Origin: Candidatus Poribacteria bacterium
GTDB taxonomy: Bacteria; Poribacteria; WGA-4E; WGA-3G
NCBI GenBank assembly: GCA_963663765.2
Contig: CAXXUA010000013.1
Span: forward strand, 64,001-128,000
Length of the DNA stretch: 64,000 nucleotides
Direction: 5' to 3'
A program made the translations under genes and the position numbers. The notes beneath the pieces were generated by a model. That model made no database searches. It was not told where the DNA came from and saw only the letters and a program-made list of their open reading frames with translations. Numbering within the stretch: position 1 is the stretch's first letter; each line of letters begins with the position of its first letter. This document shows positions 7,036 through 64,000 of the stretch, in pieces.

Positions 7036-8103
7036 ATGGCATCAAAATATCGTGTTGGGATTATTGGCTGTGGTGGCATCGCTAATGCACATGCACGCGG
7101 GTATCAAGGTGTTGAAGAAACTGATATTGTCGCACTCGCTGACCCCGTTCAAGCAGCACTATATAAATTCGCTGACAACTACGATGTATCAAAGGATAAC
7201 TGTTATTTAGATGCGCGCGAGATGTTAGATAACGAAAACTTGGACATCGTCAGTGTTACCACATGGCATAAACTGCATGCACCGATGACTATTGCAGCCT
7301 GCGCAAGAGCACCAAAGGCTGTTCTCTGCGAAAAACCTATGGGGGTTAGCCTCGGAGAATGTAATGAGATGTCAATCGCTGCCAACCGAAATAATGTCAA
7401 ACTTGTTATAGGACATCAACGCCGCTTTAATCCCGCATGGACTGATGCACGCAACCTCATCGCTGACGGCGCTATCGGGGAACCTCGGCAAATTGTTTGC
7501 AACGGTGGACAGGGATTATTAAATGACTGCTCACATCTATTCGATATGATGCGCTATCTACTAAATGACCCCGATCCGCAATGGGTTATCGGAAACGTTG
7601 AACGCAAAACTGAAAGGTTTGAACGAGATATACAAATTGAAGACCGTAGCGCAGGAATTGTCGGTTTTTCAAACGGATGCATCGGCATGCTGTTACAGGA
7701 AATCGGTAGACCGAATTATCAAGGGGGTATCGTCTACGGTACTGATGGAATTGCGGATGTAACAGAACGCCGCGTACGAATATTAAACAACAAAACCGCA
7801 GATTGGGAAGAACGTCCATCTGAAGGAATCGACCAACATGTCGCTCAAGCAAGGGAACTGGTTGATTGGCTTGAAGGTGGTCCAGAACACCGAGGTGAAG
7901 CAAAACACGGACGCGCAGCTGTTGAAATTATCATGGCTATCTATGAATCAGCACGAATGCACGAAGTCGTACAATTACCACTTCGTACACATGCGAACCC
8001 ACTGGACTTGATGATTGAAAGCGGTGAATTACCTGTTGTACGACCCGGTAGATACGACATCCGAGCATTCTTGTTACGCGGGGAATCCATGCAACCGGAA
8101 TAA
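7036..8103 (+). CDS. Gfo/Idh/MocA family oxidoreductase
   Basis: VGIIGCGGIA Rossmann motif, CEKP, GHQRRF; GGAG upstream of ATG 7036. Confidence 0.92.
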   Translation: MASKYRVGIIGCGGIANAHARGYQGVEETDIVALADPVQAALYKFADNYDVSKDNCYLDAREMLDNENLDIVSVTTWHKLHAPMTIAACARAPKAVLCEKPMGVSLGECNEMSIAANRNNVKLVIGHQRRFNPAWTDARNLIADGAIGEPRQIVCNGGQGLLNDCSHLFDMMRYLLNDPDPQWVIGNVERKTERFERDIQIEDRSAGIVGFSNGCIGMLLQEIGRPNYQGGIVYGTDGIADVTERRVRILNNKTADWEERPSEGIDQHVAQARELVDWLEGGPEHRGEAKHGRAAVEIIMAIYESARMHEVVQLPLRTHANPLDLMIESGELPVVRPGRYDIRAFLLRGESMQPE

Positions 8104-8131
8104 CATACATTCAAATTGAGACTATTATAGC

Positions 8132-9373
8132 ATGCAGATAACGCAAGGACTTAGTGTTGGCATCTCAGCACTCAGACGCAATAAGTTACGTTCCGTCCTT
8201 ACAACACTCGGTATCATCATAGGTATAGCAGCCGTAGTGGCTGTCGTCTCGGTCGGCGGCGGTGCAGAACACCTCGTCCTAATTGAACTGGAACGCACTG
8301 GTGGTGCAGGTATGATCGTTTGCTTCCGACGGTCACATCTCCAAAGAACTGATGGTTCGTATATTGAAAACAAGCATCCTGAATTCATTGAATACGAAGA
8401 CCTACCATTTATCCTTGCAAAATGTCCTTCACTTAAAACAGCAAGTGCTCAGTCTGGAATGGAAAGACGCGTCTCACACAGACATGTCAATCAGTCCCTT
8501 CAGGTACACGGGGTTACCCCTTCATTTCAGGTAGTCAATAACTGGCACATAGATACTGGAAGGTTTTTCACCGAAAGTGACATGGAACTCAGAGACCCTA
8601 TCTGTATTATCGGTTCAAAAGTAAAGGAAGACTTCTTTGACTGGACAAATCCCATCGGACAAGAAATAAAAATTGCTAATGAACGGTTCACCGTCGTTGG
8701 TGTCATGGAAGAAAAAGGCAATCAGATGGCAACAGAAGGATGGGATAATCGGGTCATAATACCCATTACCACTATGCAAATTCGCTTTATGGGAAAACGG
8801 AAAGGATGGATTGCCATTTTTGCTCAAGCAGTCAGTTATGAAAAAGTAGAGCAAGCAGTCGCTGAAATAAAGGTAGCATTCAGACAACAGCACGGTGATG
8901 AAAAATACTTCGATTTTTTCACCGCCAAACAGGTCATACAACAGGTAGGCAATGTTAGTCAGATCATACAGGTACTCCTCGGAGCAGTTGCAAGTATAGC
9001 ACTATTCGTCGGTGGTATCGGTATAATGAATATCATGTTAGTCTCTGTAACTGAACGTACTCGCGAAATCGGTTTACGCAAAGCGATCGGTGCAAGACGC
9101 ATTGACATTTTATTGCAGTTCCTGATTGAAGCGATTGTCCTAAGTATTTGTGGCGGATTAATAGGTATTCTTATTGGTAGTTCTCTGGCTACAGGATCGG
9201 GTTGGGTTATATCAAAATTCTTGATTAAAGATGCAAATTGGCCCGCGGTTGTTTCTGTTCAAGCTGCAGTCATAGCATTTTGTGTCTCTGCTTTCATCGG
9301 TGTATTCTTTGGAATCTATCCCGCAAACAAAGCCGCCGGACTTACACCAACTGAAGCATTACGACATGAATAA
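8132..9373 (+). CDS. MacB/FtsX-family ABC transporter permease
   Basis: LRSVLTTLGIIIG; GGIGIMNIMLVSVTERTREIGLRKAIGA; PAxKAAxLxPxEALRxE. Confidence 0.95.
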   Translation: MQITQGLSVGISALRRNKLRSVLTTLGIIIGIAAVVAVVSVGGGAEHLVLIELERTGGAGMIVCFRRSHLQRTDGSYIENKHPEFIEYEDLPFILAKCPSLKTASAQSGMERRVSHRHVNQSLQVHGVTPSFQVVNNWHIDTGRFFTESDMELRDPICIIGSKVKEDFFDWTNPIGQEIKIANERFTVVGVMEEKGNQMATEGWDNRVIIPITTMQIRFMGKRKGWIAIFAQAVSYEKVEQAVAEIKVAFRQQHGDEKYFDFFTAKQVIQQVGNVSQIIQVLLGAVASIALFVGGIGIMNIMLVSVTERTREIGLRKAIGARRIDILLQFLIEAIVLSICGGLIGILIGSSLATGSGWVISKFLIKDANWPAVVSVQAAVIAFCVSAFIGVFFGIYPANKAAGLTPTEALRHE

Positions 9374-54495: not shown

Positions 54496-54907
54496 ATTGC
54501 TTCATATCGTACAATTAACGTTGATTATCGGACTTACAAAGCCCTCCCACAAAAAGTTTGATTTGTCATATGATACATATAGTAGACTTTAGAACTAATT
54601 GGACATTATGTTCGGTTAGGAAACCGAACATATCAGCTGTGTTGTATCACAAACTGTATGAAGATTAAAAAATAACTTTGGTAATTTTGCAGTGAAATCC
54701 CGGCGCGCTTACAAAGCACGATTACAGGGTTTGGTGAAAATTAGAATTACCGAATTAATAGATTAATCTTCATTTAGTTTGTGTTCGTAACTGCACAAAC
54801 TTACAGTTTGTGATACAATATGTCCAATTAATAATATGCTTTACTATATACAGCGCGCCCACCGTGGGATGCGTAAGTCCTAAATTTATTCTCACATTCA
54901 CTCTATA

Positions 54908-59543: not shown

Positions 59544-59607
59544 TTTACCTCCGTTGTGTTCATGCTGTTGTAAATTTGACGTACTGCTTATGAGTAAAAT
59601 TACAAGA

Positions 59608-61632
59608 TTATTTTAGAATCACCATTCGTCGGGTTGCTTTAAATTTGCCTGCTTGAAGTGTATAGACATAAACGCCACTTGCAACAGGTTCGCCTGTAGA
59701 GTTACGTCCATCCCAATGCGCTGCACGGGACTGTGTGCGATATGTACCCGCTACCTGATGTCCTATTGCTAACTGTCGGACGCGTTGTCCTTTCATGTTA
59801 TAAATGTCTATTTTCACATTTGCATCTGTTCCTAAGTCGTACGGTATCCATGTCTCTGGATTGAAAGGATTTGGATAGTTTGGCAGAAGGATTGTTTTAT
59901 CTGGAATTATGTTATCAAGTAATCCTTTTAAAGTGGCAATACCCTTTTTTAGGACTTCAGACCCATCGTCTACTAAGCGTGCCTCTATGATCCATTTTTC
60001 TATTTGACCCAGATGTTTTGAGTTAGTTTTTCTCTGTGTTGTGGGTGCTGCTGGATTTGTAGTCTCGCTAAAATGTGCTGCAACTATTAGCAAGTCAAGT
60101 ATATTAACTCTACCATCTTGGTTTACGTCAACCTTTGAATTTTCTGGTGAATCTGCACCAAAACTTCCCGCTATAACTAAGAGATCTTGAATATCAACGA
60201 TCCCGTCATTGTTTATATCCCAAGCTAGAGATGGTGCTTTAAGAGGTTCTTTCTGGATGTGGGGTAGTGCTTGTTGCCACCCATCGTTAAGCCATTTACC
60301 AAGTGTATCAACAAGTTCGCTGTTTTCTGAAAGATTAGCAATATTAATAGTTTCATTTGGGTCGTTGTAGTAATCATAGAGTTCCTTTCCGCGTTCACCA
60401 TTGTTCCCCCATTCGGTGTATCGAAATCTGTCTGTCCGTATTGAACGTCCTGAAGTACTTCCTCTGTTGAGTTGACTAAAAGCTGCAGATTTCCACTCAC
60501 GAGTTGGCTCATTGAGAACGGGTTTAAAACTAATGCCTTCTAATTCTGGTGCTATTGGTATTTGACACACATCACATAGTGTTGGATAGATGTCAATCAG
60601 TTCAACCAAGGCATCTGTTTTCGTACCGGGGTGAGTTTGTCCTGGGATACTAGCGATTAACGGTGAGCGGAGAGATACCTCAAACAGAGTGTTTTTTCGC
60701 CAAGTTCCATGCTCTCCAAGATGAAATCCATGGTCACCACAAAAAATAATAACTGTTTTCTCAGTTAGGTTTAATGCGTCAAATTGGTCAAGGAGACGTC
60801 CCACTTGTGCATCCATATAACTTGTTGAAGCGGCATAAGCTCGAATTAGTTCTAATGTTTTTTCTTCTGATATCGGGGTATCTCTATCAGGAATATCTGA
60901 ATACAGTCGAAAGTAACCTAATTGGTTGTGTGCGAATATTGGAGAATTCATAGGAAAACTTGAAGTAACTGGTAAGCTGAAAGCTTCGGTATCGTATAAA
61001 TCATAATATTTGCTGGGTGCGTAGAAGGGTAAGTGGGGTTTATCAAATCCAACAGATAAAAAAAATCGTTTATCTTTGATATCAACTAAGAGCTCTTCTA
61101 TACGTTTTGCCGTTTTTCCATCACTTAACTCATCGTCTGTTACGTCAAGGGAACGCCATGATGGACCTGAAATAAAAGTTCCCCAAATCTGACCGATTTT
61201 ACCTTCAGAGTGGGTATAATAACCTTGGTTTCCGAAGTATTGTTGTAGGGTTGTTATACCAGGTAATGTCGTTCCAAAATCGATCAAATTATTTTGAAAT
61301 CCGGTTGTATCTGGTCGCATTCCACTAATTATAGATGCGCGAGAGGGCCCACATAGTGGAAATTGGCAATATGCGCGGTTGAAGAGTGTGCCTCTCTGGG
61401 CGAGTCTATCAATATTTGGTGTGTGCATCTCTTGATGTCCATAGCATCTAAGTAGAGGGCGCAAGTCATCTACAATGATGAACATCACGTTGTATTGCCC
61501 TTGGGTATCTGCTTGTAGTTTGGGTATAAGTCCCGTTGTGAATGCAGCCGCGCCTGCCTTCAATCCTGTTGAGATGAAGCCCCGCCGAGTAAAAGACCGT
61601 GAGAATGGCTTGTGTCGTACCGTCTCTTTCAT
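59608..61632 (-). CDS. Tat-exported iduronate-2-sulfatase-like sulfatase with dockerin-like and FlgD-like C-terminal domains
   Basis: TRRGFI, DDLRP, CGPSR, KPHLPF, DHG; DINNDG/DVNQDG; NYPNPFNPETWIPY. Confidence 0.92.
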   Translation of the reverse strand: MKETVRHKPFSRSFTRRGFISTGLKAGAAAFTTGLIPKLQADTQGQYNVMFIIVDDLRPLLRCYGHQEMHTPNIDRLAQRGTLFNRAYCQFPLCGPSRASIISGMRPDTTGFQNNLIDFGTTLPGITTLQQYFGNQGYYTHSEGKIGQIWGTFISGPSWRSLDVTDDELSDGKTAKRIEELLVDIKDKRFFLSVGFDKPHLPFYAPSKYYDLYDTEAFSLPVTSSFPMNSPIFAHNQLGYFRLYSDIPDRDTPISEEKTLELIRAYAASTSYMDAQVGRLLDQFDALNLTEKTVIIFCGDHGFHLGEHGTWRKNTLFEVSLRSPLIASIPGQTHPGTKTDALVELIDIYPTLCDVCQIPIAPELEGISFKPVLNEPTREWKSAAFSQLNRGSTSGRSIRTDRFRYTEWGNNGERGKELYDYYNDPNETINIANLSENSELVDTLGKWLNDGWQQALPHIQKEPLKAPSLAWDINNDGIVDIQDLLVIAGSFGADSPENSKVDVNQDGRVNILDLLIVAAHFSETTNPAAPTTQRKTNSKHLGQIEKWIIEARLVDDGSEVLKKGIATLKGLLDNIIPDKTILLPNYPNPFNPETWIPYDLGTDANVKIDIYNMKGQRVRQLAIGHQVAGTYRTQSRAAHWDGRNSTGEPVASGVYVYTLQAGKFKATRRMVILK

Positions 61633-61750
61633 AAGTGATTTCCTTATTTATAGTTTGTATCAAATGACCCCATGAGTTATACTATTAGTATGCGTTATAC
61701 TAACGAGTAGATGTATTCGGATCCCCGTTAATCTATTCATGGAGGTCAAC

Positions 61751-62551
61751 ATGAATCGCAAAAAGGATACCGCCTACGGTATTAACCGGCTCGAATCCAA
61801 GAATGCCAGAGTCGCTATTATTCAGAAGATTTCAGCAGACTTAAATCTAATGCCTATCGTTGCTGAAGCCTACTATAAACAGATTTCTACTTACTTTGAA
61901 CAACATACCGATGTGAAACTGACATCAGGACAAATCTGCTACGAGGCTGTCGCCGCTGAGGAACCCGCAGGAAAACACATCGCTTTAGCGAAAAAAATCT
62001 CCTGTCGGCTCACTCTCAATGACACAAACGCCGATCTTGAAGTCTTAGCGAATTATGGTCTCGCAGGACTCAGACGCCATCGGATCCTCCGATTGACTAA
62101 AGAAACTTACGACCAAGATGCCTTGCTGAGCTATGAAGATTTAGCTGTCTTATTAACCACCAGTCCTTCTACAGTCAAACGTGACATACGTCAGTTGAAA
62201 CAGGAAGGATATTTCGTTATGACGCGCGGGACGAAACACGACATGGGTACCGGCACTTCTCATAAGACGCAGATCTTGGAGCTGTATTTCAAAGTCTATA
62301 CCTTTACCGAAATGGAGCAAAAAACGAACCACAGCGAACGGGCTGTCTACCGCTACTTGAGAGACTTCACACAAGTTGCTACGCTCCACCATCAGGGGTT
62401 CCCTAACGCTCAGATACGCCTGATTACCCATCTCTCTGACCGGTTGATCCGTGAGTATCTCTCGCTGTTCAAGGAATATCAACACACCGATCGCATGACC
62501 CAACTCCTTCACCCAGAACCAGAGGACACAAAAAAGGGGGAACTCTCATGA
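61751..62551 (+). CDS. DUF1670-like HTH protein A
   Basis: GGAGG RBS; YDQDALLSYEDLAVLL..S..TV.RD, TRG..HD.G...SHK, HSERAVYRY. Confidence 0.8.
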   Translation: MNRKKDTAYGINRLESKNARVAIIQKISADLNLMPIVAEAYYKQISTYFEQHTDVKLTSGQICYEAVAAEEPAGKHIALAKKISCRLTLNDTNADLEVLANYGLAGLRRHRILRLTKETYDQDALLSYEDLAVLLTTSPSTVKRDIRQLKQEGYFVMTRGTKHDMGTGTSHKTQILELYFKVYTFTEMEQKTNHSERAVYRYLRDFTQVATLHHQGFPNAQIRLITHLSDRLIREYLSLFKEYQHTDRMTQLLHPEPEDTKKGELS

Positions 62552-63432
62552 GCAAACCTCTAACACGCACGCAAATCAACCAGAAAACATTCAGACGCAT
62601 CAACGATAAGTCTCTACGACAGTTGCTTATCCATCGCTTTCTCAATGACTACGGGTATGACAAAGGCGAAGTCACTGCCACCGCCATTGTTGATGATATT
62701 CTCAAGACTGTTGAGGACTATTTCGTAATTACCCTCCCCTTGGAGAAACTCGCCACCGGTGATCAACTCACAGATGAGCGTTTCCTGAGTTATGGACAAC
62801 TCGTTTGGATGGCTGTCCCTATTGATGAACATCCAGAAAGAGGGAAGTCCATCGTCAAAACCCGGATGAAACCCATCATCTTGACCTATCTCGCTACCGA
62901 GGATATTGAATCTTTTCAAAACGGATTTACCTCCCGACAACTGTGAATCAATCGCTTTGTCCACTGGTGTCATCAAGTTTATGACCAAGGTGCTTTATTG
63001 ACACAACTCGATTTAGCTGTCTTGCTGAACGTCTGCGATGCAGTTGTCTGTGATTATGTCAATGAATGGCAAAAAACCACTGGCGACATCTTGCCCACTC
63101 GGGGCAACATCCATGATTTATCAGGTGCCATTACCCACAAAAAAGAGATCATCACGCTCTATATTCAAGGACATCTTACTCCCAGAATCGCCGCAAAAAC
63201 CAAACATTCTAAGGAGGCAGTTGACCGATACATTCGCGATTATGAGAGCGTCAAAGTCGTTCGGAAAGCAACCGCAGATATTGACCAAATCTCACAGATC
63301 ACACAACTTTCTAAACGCGTTATCACTCAATATCTCGACCTTATTCCACAGCACCAACTTCAAGCGATGGATGCAAACCTTACCAATTCATCTGCAAACG
63401 ATGCAACAACACGCCAAGGAGAAGAACAATGA
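62548..63432 (+). pseudogene. DUF1670-like protein B with an in-frame TGA at 62944-62946
   Basis: ORFs 62548-62946 and 62998-63432 share one frame; YDQGALLTQLDLAVLL, PTRGNIHD...THK, HSKEAVDRY. Confidence 0.8.
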
Positions 63433-63501
63433 TACTAAACCTCCTGATCCACCAGACGAACATTATTCAGCAAAACCGAGGCAGTTTCCTTGAAAATAGG
63501 A

Positions 63502-63529
63502 TTGACAACTGCTACTTGTTTTCTATACT
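63502..63529 (+). promoter_or_regulatory. Near-consensus sigma-70 promoter pointing out of the DUF1670 element
   Basis: TTGACA-16 bp-TATACT. Confidence 0.7.
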
Positions 63530-63535
63530 CTAAGA

Positions 63536-63629
63536 ATGTTTACCGTTAATCGCATCATTATCTCAAAGAGAATGATAGCGATTCCAACTTAACCCACTCA
63601 TCAACGATGGTTGCGAAGCTAATAAACAT
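63536..63629 (+). ncRNA. Putative structured ncRNA (closing stem plus two hairpins)
   Basis: Starts 7 nt after the -10 box; ATGTTTA/TAAACAT closing stem; hairpins at 63548-63583 and 63591-63612. Confidence 0.5.
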
Positions 63630-63661
63630 CAGCATTCCAGTTATCCTATGGTCATATGATA

Positions 63662-64000
63662 CTATTTTTTTATTACCATTTTGCGTGTAATTTTCGATTG
63701 CCCCGCGCTAAGTGTATAGAGATAGATACCACTTGCGACAGGTTCACCAGCAGAATTATATCCATCCCAATGAGCGGAGCGCGACTGTGTACGATATGTG
63801 CCTGCTGTTTGAAAACCAACTTTAAGTTGTCGGATAGTTTCACCTTTTAAATTGTAGATATGGATATTGACATCTGCATCTTGGCCTAAGTCGTAAGGAA
63901 TCCATGTCTCCGGATTAAAAGGATTAGGATAGTTTGGCAATAGTGCCGTTTCCTTTGGAATCACGCGGTTAAGCAATCCTTCTAAGTTAGCAATACCACG
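63662..64000 (-). CDS. C-terminal FlgD-Ig/T9SS-like domain of a secreted protein (truncated by window edge)
   Basis: LLPNYPNPFNPETWIPY...WDG.N..GEPVASGIYLY. Confidence 0.9.
   Translation of the reverse strand, partial: RGIANLEGLLNRVIPKETALLPNYPNPFNPETWIPYDLGQDADVNIHIYNLKGETIRQLKVGFQTAGTYRTQSRSAHWDGYNSAGEPVASGIYLYTLSAGQSKITRKMVIKK

Follow-up and report, generated by a model that had tools for sequence, protein, structure and literature searches.

An outward promoter and a candidate RNA at the right end of a DUF1670 insertion sequence in Candidatus Poribacteria

Insertion sequences that encode an RNA in a non-coding end, such as IS110/IS1111 and the TnpB elements, have recently proved to be RNA-guided. 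The DNA analysed here (the window, 64,000 nucleotides of contig CAXXUA010000013.1 from a Candidatus Poribacteria bacterium) holds an element with two DUF1670 genes and, at its right end, a promoter of consensus type that points outward. A preliminary description of this locus proposed that the promoter transcribes a structured RNA of about 95 nt, a candidate guide or scaffold. Is the promoter genuine, is the fold of its transcript conserved, and what could such an RNA do for the element?

The element, its genes and its insertion site

The element and its surroundings comprise the following features.

61645–61649: left direct repeat TATTT, 5 bp (target duplication or crossover core), from the aligned left junctions of 6 copies
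61650–63662, + strand: DUF1670 insertion sequence, a decaying copy of 2,013 bp, its ends set by aligning copies with their flanks
61657–61669, + strand: left terminal inverted repeat core GTATCAAATGACC, kept in 68 distinct left ends of relatives
61739–62551, + strand: ORF1, full DUF1670 protein (Pfam PF07900, E 4.6e-60)
62548–63432, + strand: ORF2, second DUF1670 paralogue, with one in-frame TGA at 62944–62946; both halves match PF07900 in one frame
63650–63662, + strand: right terminal inverted repeat core GGTCATATGATAC; its final C supplies the third base of the host gene's TAG stop (− strand)
63662–64000, − strand: host gene 3′ end with a type IX secretion C-terminal sorting domain (Pfam FlgD_ig and Por_Secre_tail), convergent with the element
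63663–63667: right direct repeat TATTT, 5 bp; on the − strand, a Lys codon plus the TA of the type IX secretion system (T9SS) cargo gene stop

The two DUF1670 genes overlap, are the sole genes in the element and lie between inverted repeats in a multicopy unit that stands at type IX cargo stop codons. The terminal repeat cores are reverse complements save for one base (in the window copy, ATATG on the right and AAATG on the left). In both ORFs the Pfam matches are confined to DUF1670 and helix-turn-helix families, with no DEDD or RuvC-type domain, and a profile of ORF1 relatives gave one marginal match only (E 0.5) among solved structures. The true start of ORF1 is likely the second ATG, at 61751, which lies behind GGAGG and would yield 266 aa, as in relatives (265–266 aa). 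The TGA codon of ORF2 corresponds to Arg in five intact copies, where the protein has 294 aa. Judged by this broken ORF2, the window copy is decaying. Copy L005 has a stop at the same codon and copy L004 carries a frameshift; of the 5 copies with ORFs in the window's genome, just 2 seem intact. This genome holds 4 full-length copies of 92–100% identity. Besides these there are one copy truncated at its 5′ end, a fragment of the left end, a miniature derivative, a solo right end of 168 bp and a relic of 46 bp. A literature search, supplements aside, found no paper naming DUF1670 or PF07900.

Comparison of the occupied sites of the window copy and its relatives showed that insertion is site- and orientation-specific. 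The right tip stands tail-to-tail with a type IX cargo gene, whose TAG stop is completed by the last C of the element, and the host gene is convergent with the right end at every occupied site examined. A vacant look-alike site, T-TATTT-TAG, is found at 59605–59625, at the end of a neighbouring sulfatase gene, and some target flanks hold GTATCAA, which is also the core of the element end. Two type IX cargo genes flank the element and would be about 15 nt apart without the insertion; at the left junction (61632–61650) the ribosome-binding site of the sulfatase gene directly adjoins the left TATTT. Co-transcription of these two genes is probably broken by the insertion. Elsewhere in the window, TGTCATATGATAC at 54564–54576 has one mismatch to the right terminal repeat core, with no element alongside. 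The right flanks of L063 and L107, which belong to different subgroups, share a second kind of target, TATTTACTGTT.GG.A.TATT.CCGG; it follows a Lys codon plus stop, but the stop is not that of a type IX sorting domain.

Of 176 Poribacteria genomes, 43 contain DUF1670, frequently in multiple copies. Among 112 genomes of the family, 74 have right-end matches and only 31 have DUF1670 genes. Solo right-end relics of about 70–170 nt lie beside type IX cargo gene ends in 18 regions (L142–L159) of 12 Poribacteria genomes. They are cut at differing points and most have lost the promoter; the promoterless relics keep the sequence of hairpin domain 2 described below. Four copies in genome G137 share a different repeated sequence upstream. 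Promoter and RNA region are both kept in the 168-nt solo right end (L008) and in the miniature form (L007:1461–1829, on contig 4 of G000), which consists of the left 39 bp and the right ~330 bp. This last arrangement was found once in the 112 genomes, only in the window's genome.

The right-end promoter and predicted outward transcription

Two promoter positions, one at each end, are considered here.

63502–63529, + strand: outward promoter P_R, −35 TTGACA (63502–63507) and −10 TATACT (63524–63529), 11/12 with a 16-nt spacer
61655–61683, + strand: left-end promoter candidate P_L (TTGTAT, 17 nt, TATACT), its −35 inside the terminal repeat

P_R is the only site of at least 10/12 among 4 promoter-like sites in 61400–64000. 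Shuffles of the same segment gave 5.6 sites at the scan threshold, so a single site is not beyond chance and the evidence for P_R rests on conservation in relatives. We aligned 35 distinct Poribacteria-type right ends from Poribacteria genomes and public contigs, having dropped 5 exact duplicates. A promoter of at least 9/12 was present at the homologous place in 33 of them, which confirms the TTGACA-N16-TATACT promoter reported earlier; the two exceptions are L017, split by a nested insertion sequence, and L029 (8/12). Mean column identity reached 0.91 in the −35, 0.98 in the −10 and 0.94–1.0 in the TTG just upstream of the −10, against 0.70 in the first 13 spacer positions and 0.69 in the 20 nt upstream. 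By this pattern of identity, P_R is a genuine promoter maintained by selection. Both hexamers, a spacing of 16–18 nt, a place in the element end, an outward direction and conservation make it an insertion-sequence outward promoter. The window copy lacks the G of the family's TGC extended −10; owing to this loss its spacer is 16 nt, and its own promoter is weakened. Nothing terminator-like was found on the + strand from P_R to the right tip, in agreement with what had been noted before.

Several observations concern promoters in and around these elements. The insertion that splits the right-end promoter of L017 between −35 and −10 measures ~1.5 kb (7081–8608) and, from its sequence, its 425-aa ORF appears to encode a DDE-type transposase. 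In the short right ends of L056, L062, L063 and L098, an inverted repeat (e.g. GATGTCTG ... CAGACATC) brackets the −10 of the outward promoter and looks like an operator. A weak leftward promoter-like site lies within ORF1 (61900–61872, 9/12).

The metagenomic relatives provided 59 distinct right ends, with ORF1 60–92% identical. An outward promoter of at least 9/12 was found in 32 of the 59, compared with inward sites in 13 and sites in the upstream coding stretch in 3; sites of at least 11/12 numbered 9 outward, 0 inward and 0 in the coding stretch. The predicted distance from start to tip falls into classes of about 30, 43, 92, 126 and 163–192 nt, and some members have 3–27 nt after ORF2. 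The terminal ~45 nt are kept across the whole family, even where all upstream sequence differs. Because the start-to-tip distance varies from ~30 to 190 nt, the "structured" part of ~95 nt is a lineage-specific module. In close relatives the predicted transcribed part of the element is about 30 or 43 nt, so a long structured RNA cannot be essential to the family. What these alignments indicate as the conserved trait is outward transcription across the right tip, not the sequence between start and tip.

At the left end, 53 of 68 distinct sequences have a promoter-like site of at least 8/12, in most cases at one fixed place, and TATACT occurs twice. In an RNA entering via the left repeat, GACCCCAUGAG is expected from folding to base-pair with the region of the ORF1 ribosome-binding site (z −2.71), and an RNA starting at P_L would lack the GACCCCAUGAG strand and avoid this fold-back. 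The fold-back is predicted to occlude transcripts entering from outside, which resembles the fold-back protection known from IS10. Within 61650–61760, as in the left ends of the 68 relatives, repeat-proximal sequence forms an inverted repeat with the ORF1 ribosome-binding and start region, and in many relatives the ORF1 start region (CTCCTATGGTCAAA) resembles a third copy of the terminal repeat. An abutted right-left junction (circle or tandem) was found in none of the 129 loci examined, and no right-to-left joint is listed for the RNA-library contigs described below.

The predicted transcript and its fold

The predicted transcript and its hairpins are located as follows.

63536–63662, + strand: element-internal part of the predicted P_R transcript, 127 nt, with the start placed by promoter geometry
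63548–63583, + strand: hairpin 1, in the minimum-energy fold of the window copy, with the outer stem shifted in the family
63606–63645, + strand: hairpin domain 2, loop CTAATAAACATCAG, its 3′ strand being the conserved sub-terminal sequence

In the fold proposed in the preliminary description, a 7-base closing stem (63536–63542/63623–63629) encloses a long hairpin and a CATC/GATG hairpin. The two strands of the closing stem are complementary in the window copy, yet the stem is absent from the predicted fold, and in the family two of its pairs are unpaired in 12 and 9 of 24 sequences with no compensating change. The long hairpin (hairpin 1) does appear in the window copy's fold, but its three outer pairs are unpaired in 12–20 of the 24 sequences; most family members form the outer stem from ATCGCT and AGCGAT, shifted upstream by one register. 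The CATC/GATG hairpin persists, with 88.5% of cells pairing and a double change in one pair. The structure was said to stop ~25 nt before the junction; it does stop short of the right tip, at a distance that has to be corrected, since the tip (63662) is 33 nt beyond the last pair. The largest helix, domain 2, had escaped notice. In it GATGGTTGCGAAG pairs with CATTCCAGTTATC around the near-invariant loop CTAATAAACATCAG. It is predicted in 6 of 8 Poribacteria-type sequences folded, 84.9% of cells pair with one double change among 24 family members, and L034 and L041 have apparent compensating changes by eye.

Across the 24 members, 77.9% of cells pair in the earlier fold, and its double changes are no commoner than in shuffles. 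An alternative fold, composed of hairpin 1 (outer stem ATCGCT/AGCGAT), the CATC/GATG hairpin and the 63606–63645 hairpin, pairs 87.3% of cells and scores 0.163 against 0.136 in shuffles, which 0 of 500 shuffles reach. Its 11 double-change cells, against 4.2 in shuffles, are also reached by 0 of 500; only 3 pairs carry double changes, a number that 179 of 500 shuffles match. Covariation in the window's own family, as read from this alignment, is weak. The folding energy of the window copy itself is unremarkable (z −1.23, −1.70 and −1.36). In single-sequence folding, mean z was −2.08 on the + strand and −0.94 on the − strand, with the + strand lower in 22 of 30 sequences; the RNAalifold consensus energy is lower on the − strand (−43.0 vs −34.8). 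On the + strand, the alternative fold has 76 G-U against 23 A-C cells, a count biased toward the + strand because the fold was derived on it, and the earlier fold has 42 against 78. As to strand, then, the signs are mixed. Two hairpins are modestly conserved, with stronger folding on the + strand, and hairpins right after the start site are probably favoured at the RNA level.

The fold differs between subtypes. A subtype with a 34-nt deletion has lost hairpin 1 and bears in the same place a new perfect hairpin, ATGTGC-N6-GCACAT, folding with z −4.85 and −3.27; in a diverged subtype CTAGCC/GGCTAG replaces the ATCGCT/AGCGAT of the main type. The six diverged members fold no better than shuffles, the consensus fold of all 30 main and diverged sequences is essentially none (−0.3 kcal/mol), and an unbiased scan for covarying column pairs gave output dominated by relatedness. 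The notion of a fixed ~95-nt scaffold did not hold, as relatives start ~30 or 43 nt from the tip and the sister subtype is without hairpin 1.

In 4 RNA-library runs (8 runs found, from 2 studies), assembled contigs of relatives cover all 30 bins of 61600–63760; such contigs carry neither strand, start nor level, and their shares in the runs are small. Lower contig depth at 63498–63570 coincides with the variable spacer. The region was also compared with known RNA families. Rfam gave no match at E up to 10 in 61500–64000, and two hits listed outside this segment are at chance level; in the loci of 11 relatives there was no match at E up to 1.

A distant subgroup, with 15 distinct elements among 80 metagenome loci (18 loci when duplicates are counted), has an RNA of a different kind.

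L099:1991–2142: RNA of ~150 nt in the distant subgroup, located after ORF2 and before the right repeat
L071, L077, L084, L088, L090, L091, L094, L095, L104, L106, L113, L115, L117 and L128: the 14 further loci with this RNA

Its layout, arranged by eye, begins with P1 (TCCGG/CCGGA), followed by unpaired GUGAAACGGA, P2 with the conserved loop CUCUGCUGAGGAGCAA, unpaired AAGGGAUAGC, a long variable P3 and AUGCCUUGAAAACC. In this RNA 96.9% of cells pair, compensating changes occur in 19 of 28 pairs, and the score is 0.597 against 0.240 in shuffles and about 0.1 in slid controls. Unpaired nucleotides are conserved as well. No Rfam match was obtained in the relatives' loci at E up to 1. A promoter, TTGAC(A/T)-N16-18-TAnAnT, lies upstream and by eye would start the RNA at P1; the promoter scan found a site of at least 9/12, with its start 163–192 nt from the tip, in 9 of 13 elements examined. 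Judged from these alignments, one branch of the family has a clearly structured right-end RNA that is uncatalogued. Searched at E up to 1, the window's genome contained no match to a model of this RNA (R1), and the model's 18 matches in 86 sources are all training sequences and their duplicates. As R1 finds nothing in the window, its genome or other loci, the window RNA is not a recognisable relative or homologue of the ~150-nt RNA. A strongly covarying RNA at the same position and behind the same kind of promoter nevertheless makes an RNA role in the family plausible, and it shows that selection on a right-end RNA of DUF1670 elements can be strong. The earlier suggestion that the element may use an RNA is thus reasonable given the distant subgroup, while the guide role attached to it is not borne out.

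Possible roles of the right-end transcript

We looked for complementarity of the RNA to the target and to the element ends. Duplexes were computed with both strands of the left end and of the right flank and with the ORF1–ORF2 junction; no complementarity to target or ends emerged, all energies lying within shuffles (z −1.1 to +1.1). Only 6-base matches were found, with about one to the target being expected by chance, and the caution that the short matches between RNA and ends are too short for evidence was justified. With neither an Rfam match nor complementarity, a guide role is unsupported. Since relatives with a stretch of 30–43 nt use the same target and GTATCAA occurs in flanks, recognition by a DNA-binding protein would suffice.

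Known systems share single traits with this locus. TnpB elements encode an RNA at their right end, on the sense strand of their genes, that extends into the flank. The predicted transcript resembles the omega RNA of TnpB/IscB (IS200/IS605) in its right-end place, its sense and its outward course into flanking DNA; it differs in that there is no RuvC nuclease and no Rfam match for an omega or right-end RNA, that the ends here are inverted repeats with a 5-bp repeat and not hairpins, and that the scaffold is not kept in close relatives. IS10 pOUT is located at the 5′ end of the transposase gene and produces an RNA antisense to it, and the junction promoters of IS911, IS30 and IS21 are divided between the two ends. 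P_R is likewise a sigma-70 promoter in an element end that points outward, but it is complete, lies at the 3′ end on the strand of the genes and faces a convergent host gene. In IS1111 an RNA (seekRNA) derives from the non-coding region downstream of the gene and insertion is site- and orientation-specific; IS110/IS1111 elements have a DEDD transposase and no target duplication, and their promoter forms only at the circle junction, from where both tnp and the non-coding region are presumed to be transcribed (PMC11187229). Compared with these, the DUF1670 element is alike in its non-coding region beside the genes and its site- and orientation-specific insertion. It differs by its two helix-turn-helix DUF1670 proteins in place of a DEDD transposase, by the 5-bp TATTT at both junctions, by a complete promoter inside the right end and by an RNA without stretches matching target and element ends. 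The IS1202 family, for which site- and orientation-specific insertion next to dif-like sites is described (PMC10132070), is similar in being small, with inverted repeats, and in that its insertions share one orientation and a constant distance to a recurrent host sequence; target and host differ, and the portion of that paper used here mentions neither an RNA nor an outward promoter.

We put at about even chances the view that the right-end transcript is a non-coding RNA that acts on the element's behalf, be it as a cofactor in its transposition or expression or as a regulator of either. P_R, of the sigma-70 type, points from the two genes toward the right tip, and transcription would start near 63536; firing, start and end are predictions. 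The first 127 nt would comprise a 5′ hairpin (63548–63583), a second hairpin (63606–63645) and the terminal inverted repeat. As no terminator follows P_R, the RNA should leave the element and run antisense to the last codons of the secreted-protein gene. Its folded 5′ part may be an exchangeable, lineage-specific module that stabilises the RNA or binds a protein, and would not be a programmable guide. We infer that the RNA has a function for the element. For this view speak the kept promoter, the recurrence of outward promoters in relatives, the two modestly conserved hairpins, the ~150-nt RNA of the distant subgroup and the retention of promoter and RNA region in L008 and L007. Against it stand the weak covariation, the lower consensus energy on the − strand, the failure of all 30 sequences to share a fold, the short transcribed part in close relatives and the damaged promoter and ORF2 of the window copy; the arms may also just as well be inverted sites on the DNA to which the helix-turn-helix proteins bind. 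A structured RNA, particular to this lineage, is plausible on weak support.

Junction promoters of IS3, IS30, IS21, IS256 and IS110/IS1111 drive expression of this sort, and P_R could likewise transcribe ORF1–ORF2 after the right and left ends are joined in a circle or tandem, the RNA then being a mere leader. That the promoter is kept while the transcribed sequence varies between about 30 and 190 nt fits a need for transcription across the tip, and the lack of a terminator between P_R and the tip agrees with it. The 5-bp repeat and inverted repeats are compatible with copy-out, paste-in elements, and the presumed role of the circle-junction promoter of IS1111/IS110 (PMC11187229) is a precedent. 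We nevertheless hold this rather unlikely: the whole promoter sits in one end, so joining would be no switch, and the left end has its own conserved promoter-like site (53/68), while pairing with GACCCCAUGAG is predicted for the ORF1 ribosome-binding region of an RNA that includes the left repeat. None of the 129 loci has an abutted junction, and the conserved 150-nt RNA of the distant subgroup would be left unexplained. That same RNA, through its conserved unpaired nucleotides, also counts against a shield from read-in, in which the outward promoter and a stable RNA would block or process antisense host transcription or act on the 3′ end of the host mRNA. For such a shield, which we regard as unlikely, speak the convergent host gene at every examined site, with its stop completed by the element's last base, and the predicted antisense overlap of the transcript with the host gene 3′ end; 5′ hairpins do stabilise bacterial RNAs. 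A simple − strand terminator would suffice for the purpose, however, and none is present.

The right end might also act purely as DNA, its arms and terminal ~45 bp binding the DUF1670 helix-turn-helix proteins and its promoter being incidental or an autoregulated operator. The last ~45 nt are indeed kept family-wide despite differing upstream sequence, the − strand folds equally well by consensus energy, TATACT occurs twice in the left end, and the promoterless solo relics keep the domain-2 sequence. We consider this quite improbable, however, since hexamers, spacing and TG extension stay promoter-like while the spacer drifts, G-U exceeds A-C by 76 to 23 (in a fold derived on the + strand) and z is lower on the + strand in 22 of 30 sequences. 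A guide or bridge RNA of the IS110/IS1111 or TnpB kind, directing insertion by pairing with both target and donor DNA, seems very improbable indeed. Its attraction lies in the site- and orientation-specific insertion and in a transcript that would carry flank like the TnpB right-end RNA. The non-coding location at the right end, downstream of the genes, is similar to that of the IS1111 seekRNA (PMC11187229). Against it, the proteins have only helix-turn-helix domains and none of DEDD or RuvC type, duplexes with target, flank and left end are no more stable than those of shuffles and matches reach 6 bases only, and no Rfam guide-RNA family matches; moreover, the RNA part is absent or tiny in close relatives with the same target, and the target partly resembles the element end (GTATCAA in some flanks), so protein recognition could explain the specificity.

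The view that the transcript is an RNA serving the element can be extended to a bolder proposal, which we rate as highly unlikely. By crossing the right tip, the transcript would reproduce the junction between element and target. DUF1670 elements, being without a recognisable DNA-cutting enzyme, might depend on a right-end RNA of this kind to help their proteins find look-alike gene ends, a junction-templated choice of target distinct from bridge RNAs and TnpB guides.

These elements combine two DNA-binding proteins only, base-precise insertion at the stop codons of secreted-protein genes and a strong outward promoter that has been kept. If the RNA proves necessary, it would represent a new way to move or control DNA. 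If it proves unnecessary, the elements would still be a well-documented instance of an outward promoter under selection, and the price for the sponge symbionts that host them would probably be antisense transcription of surface-protein genes.
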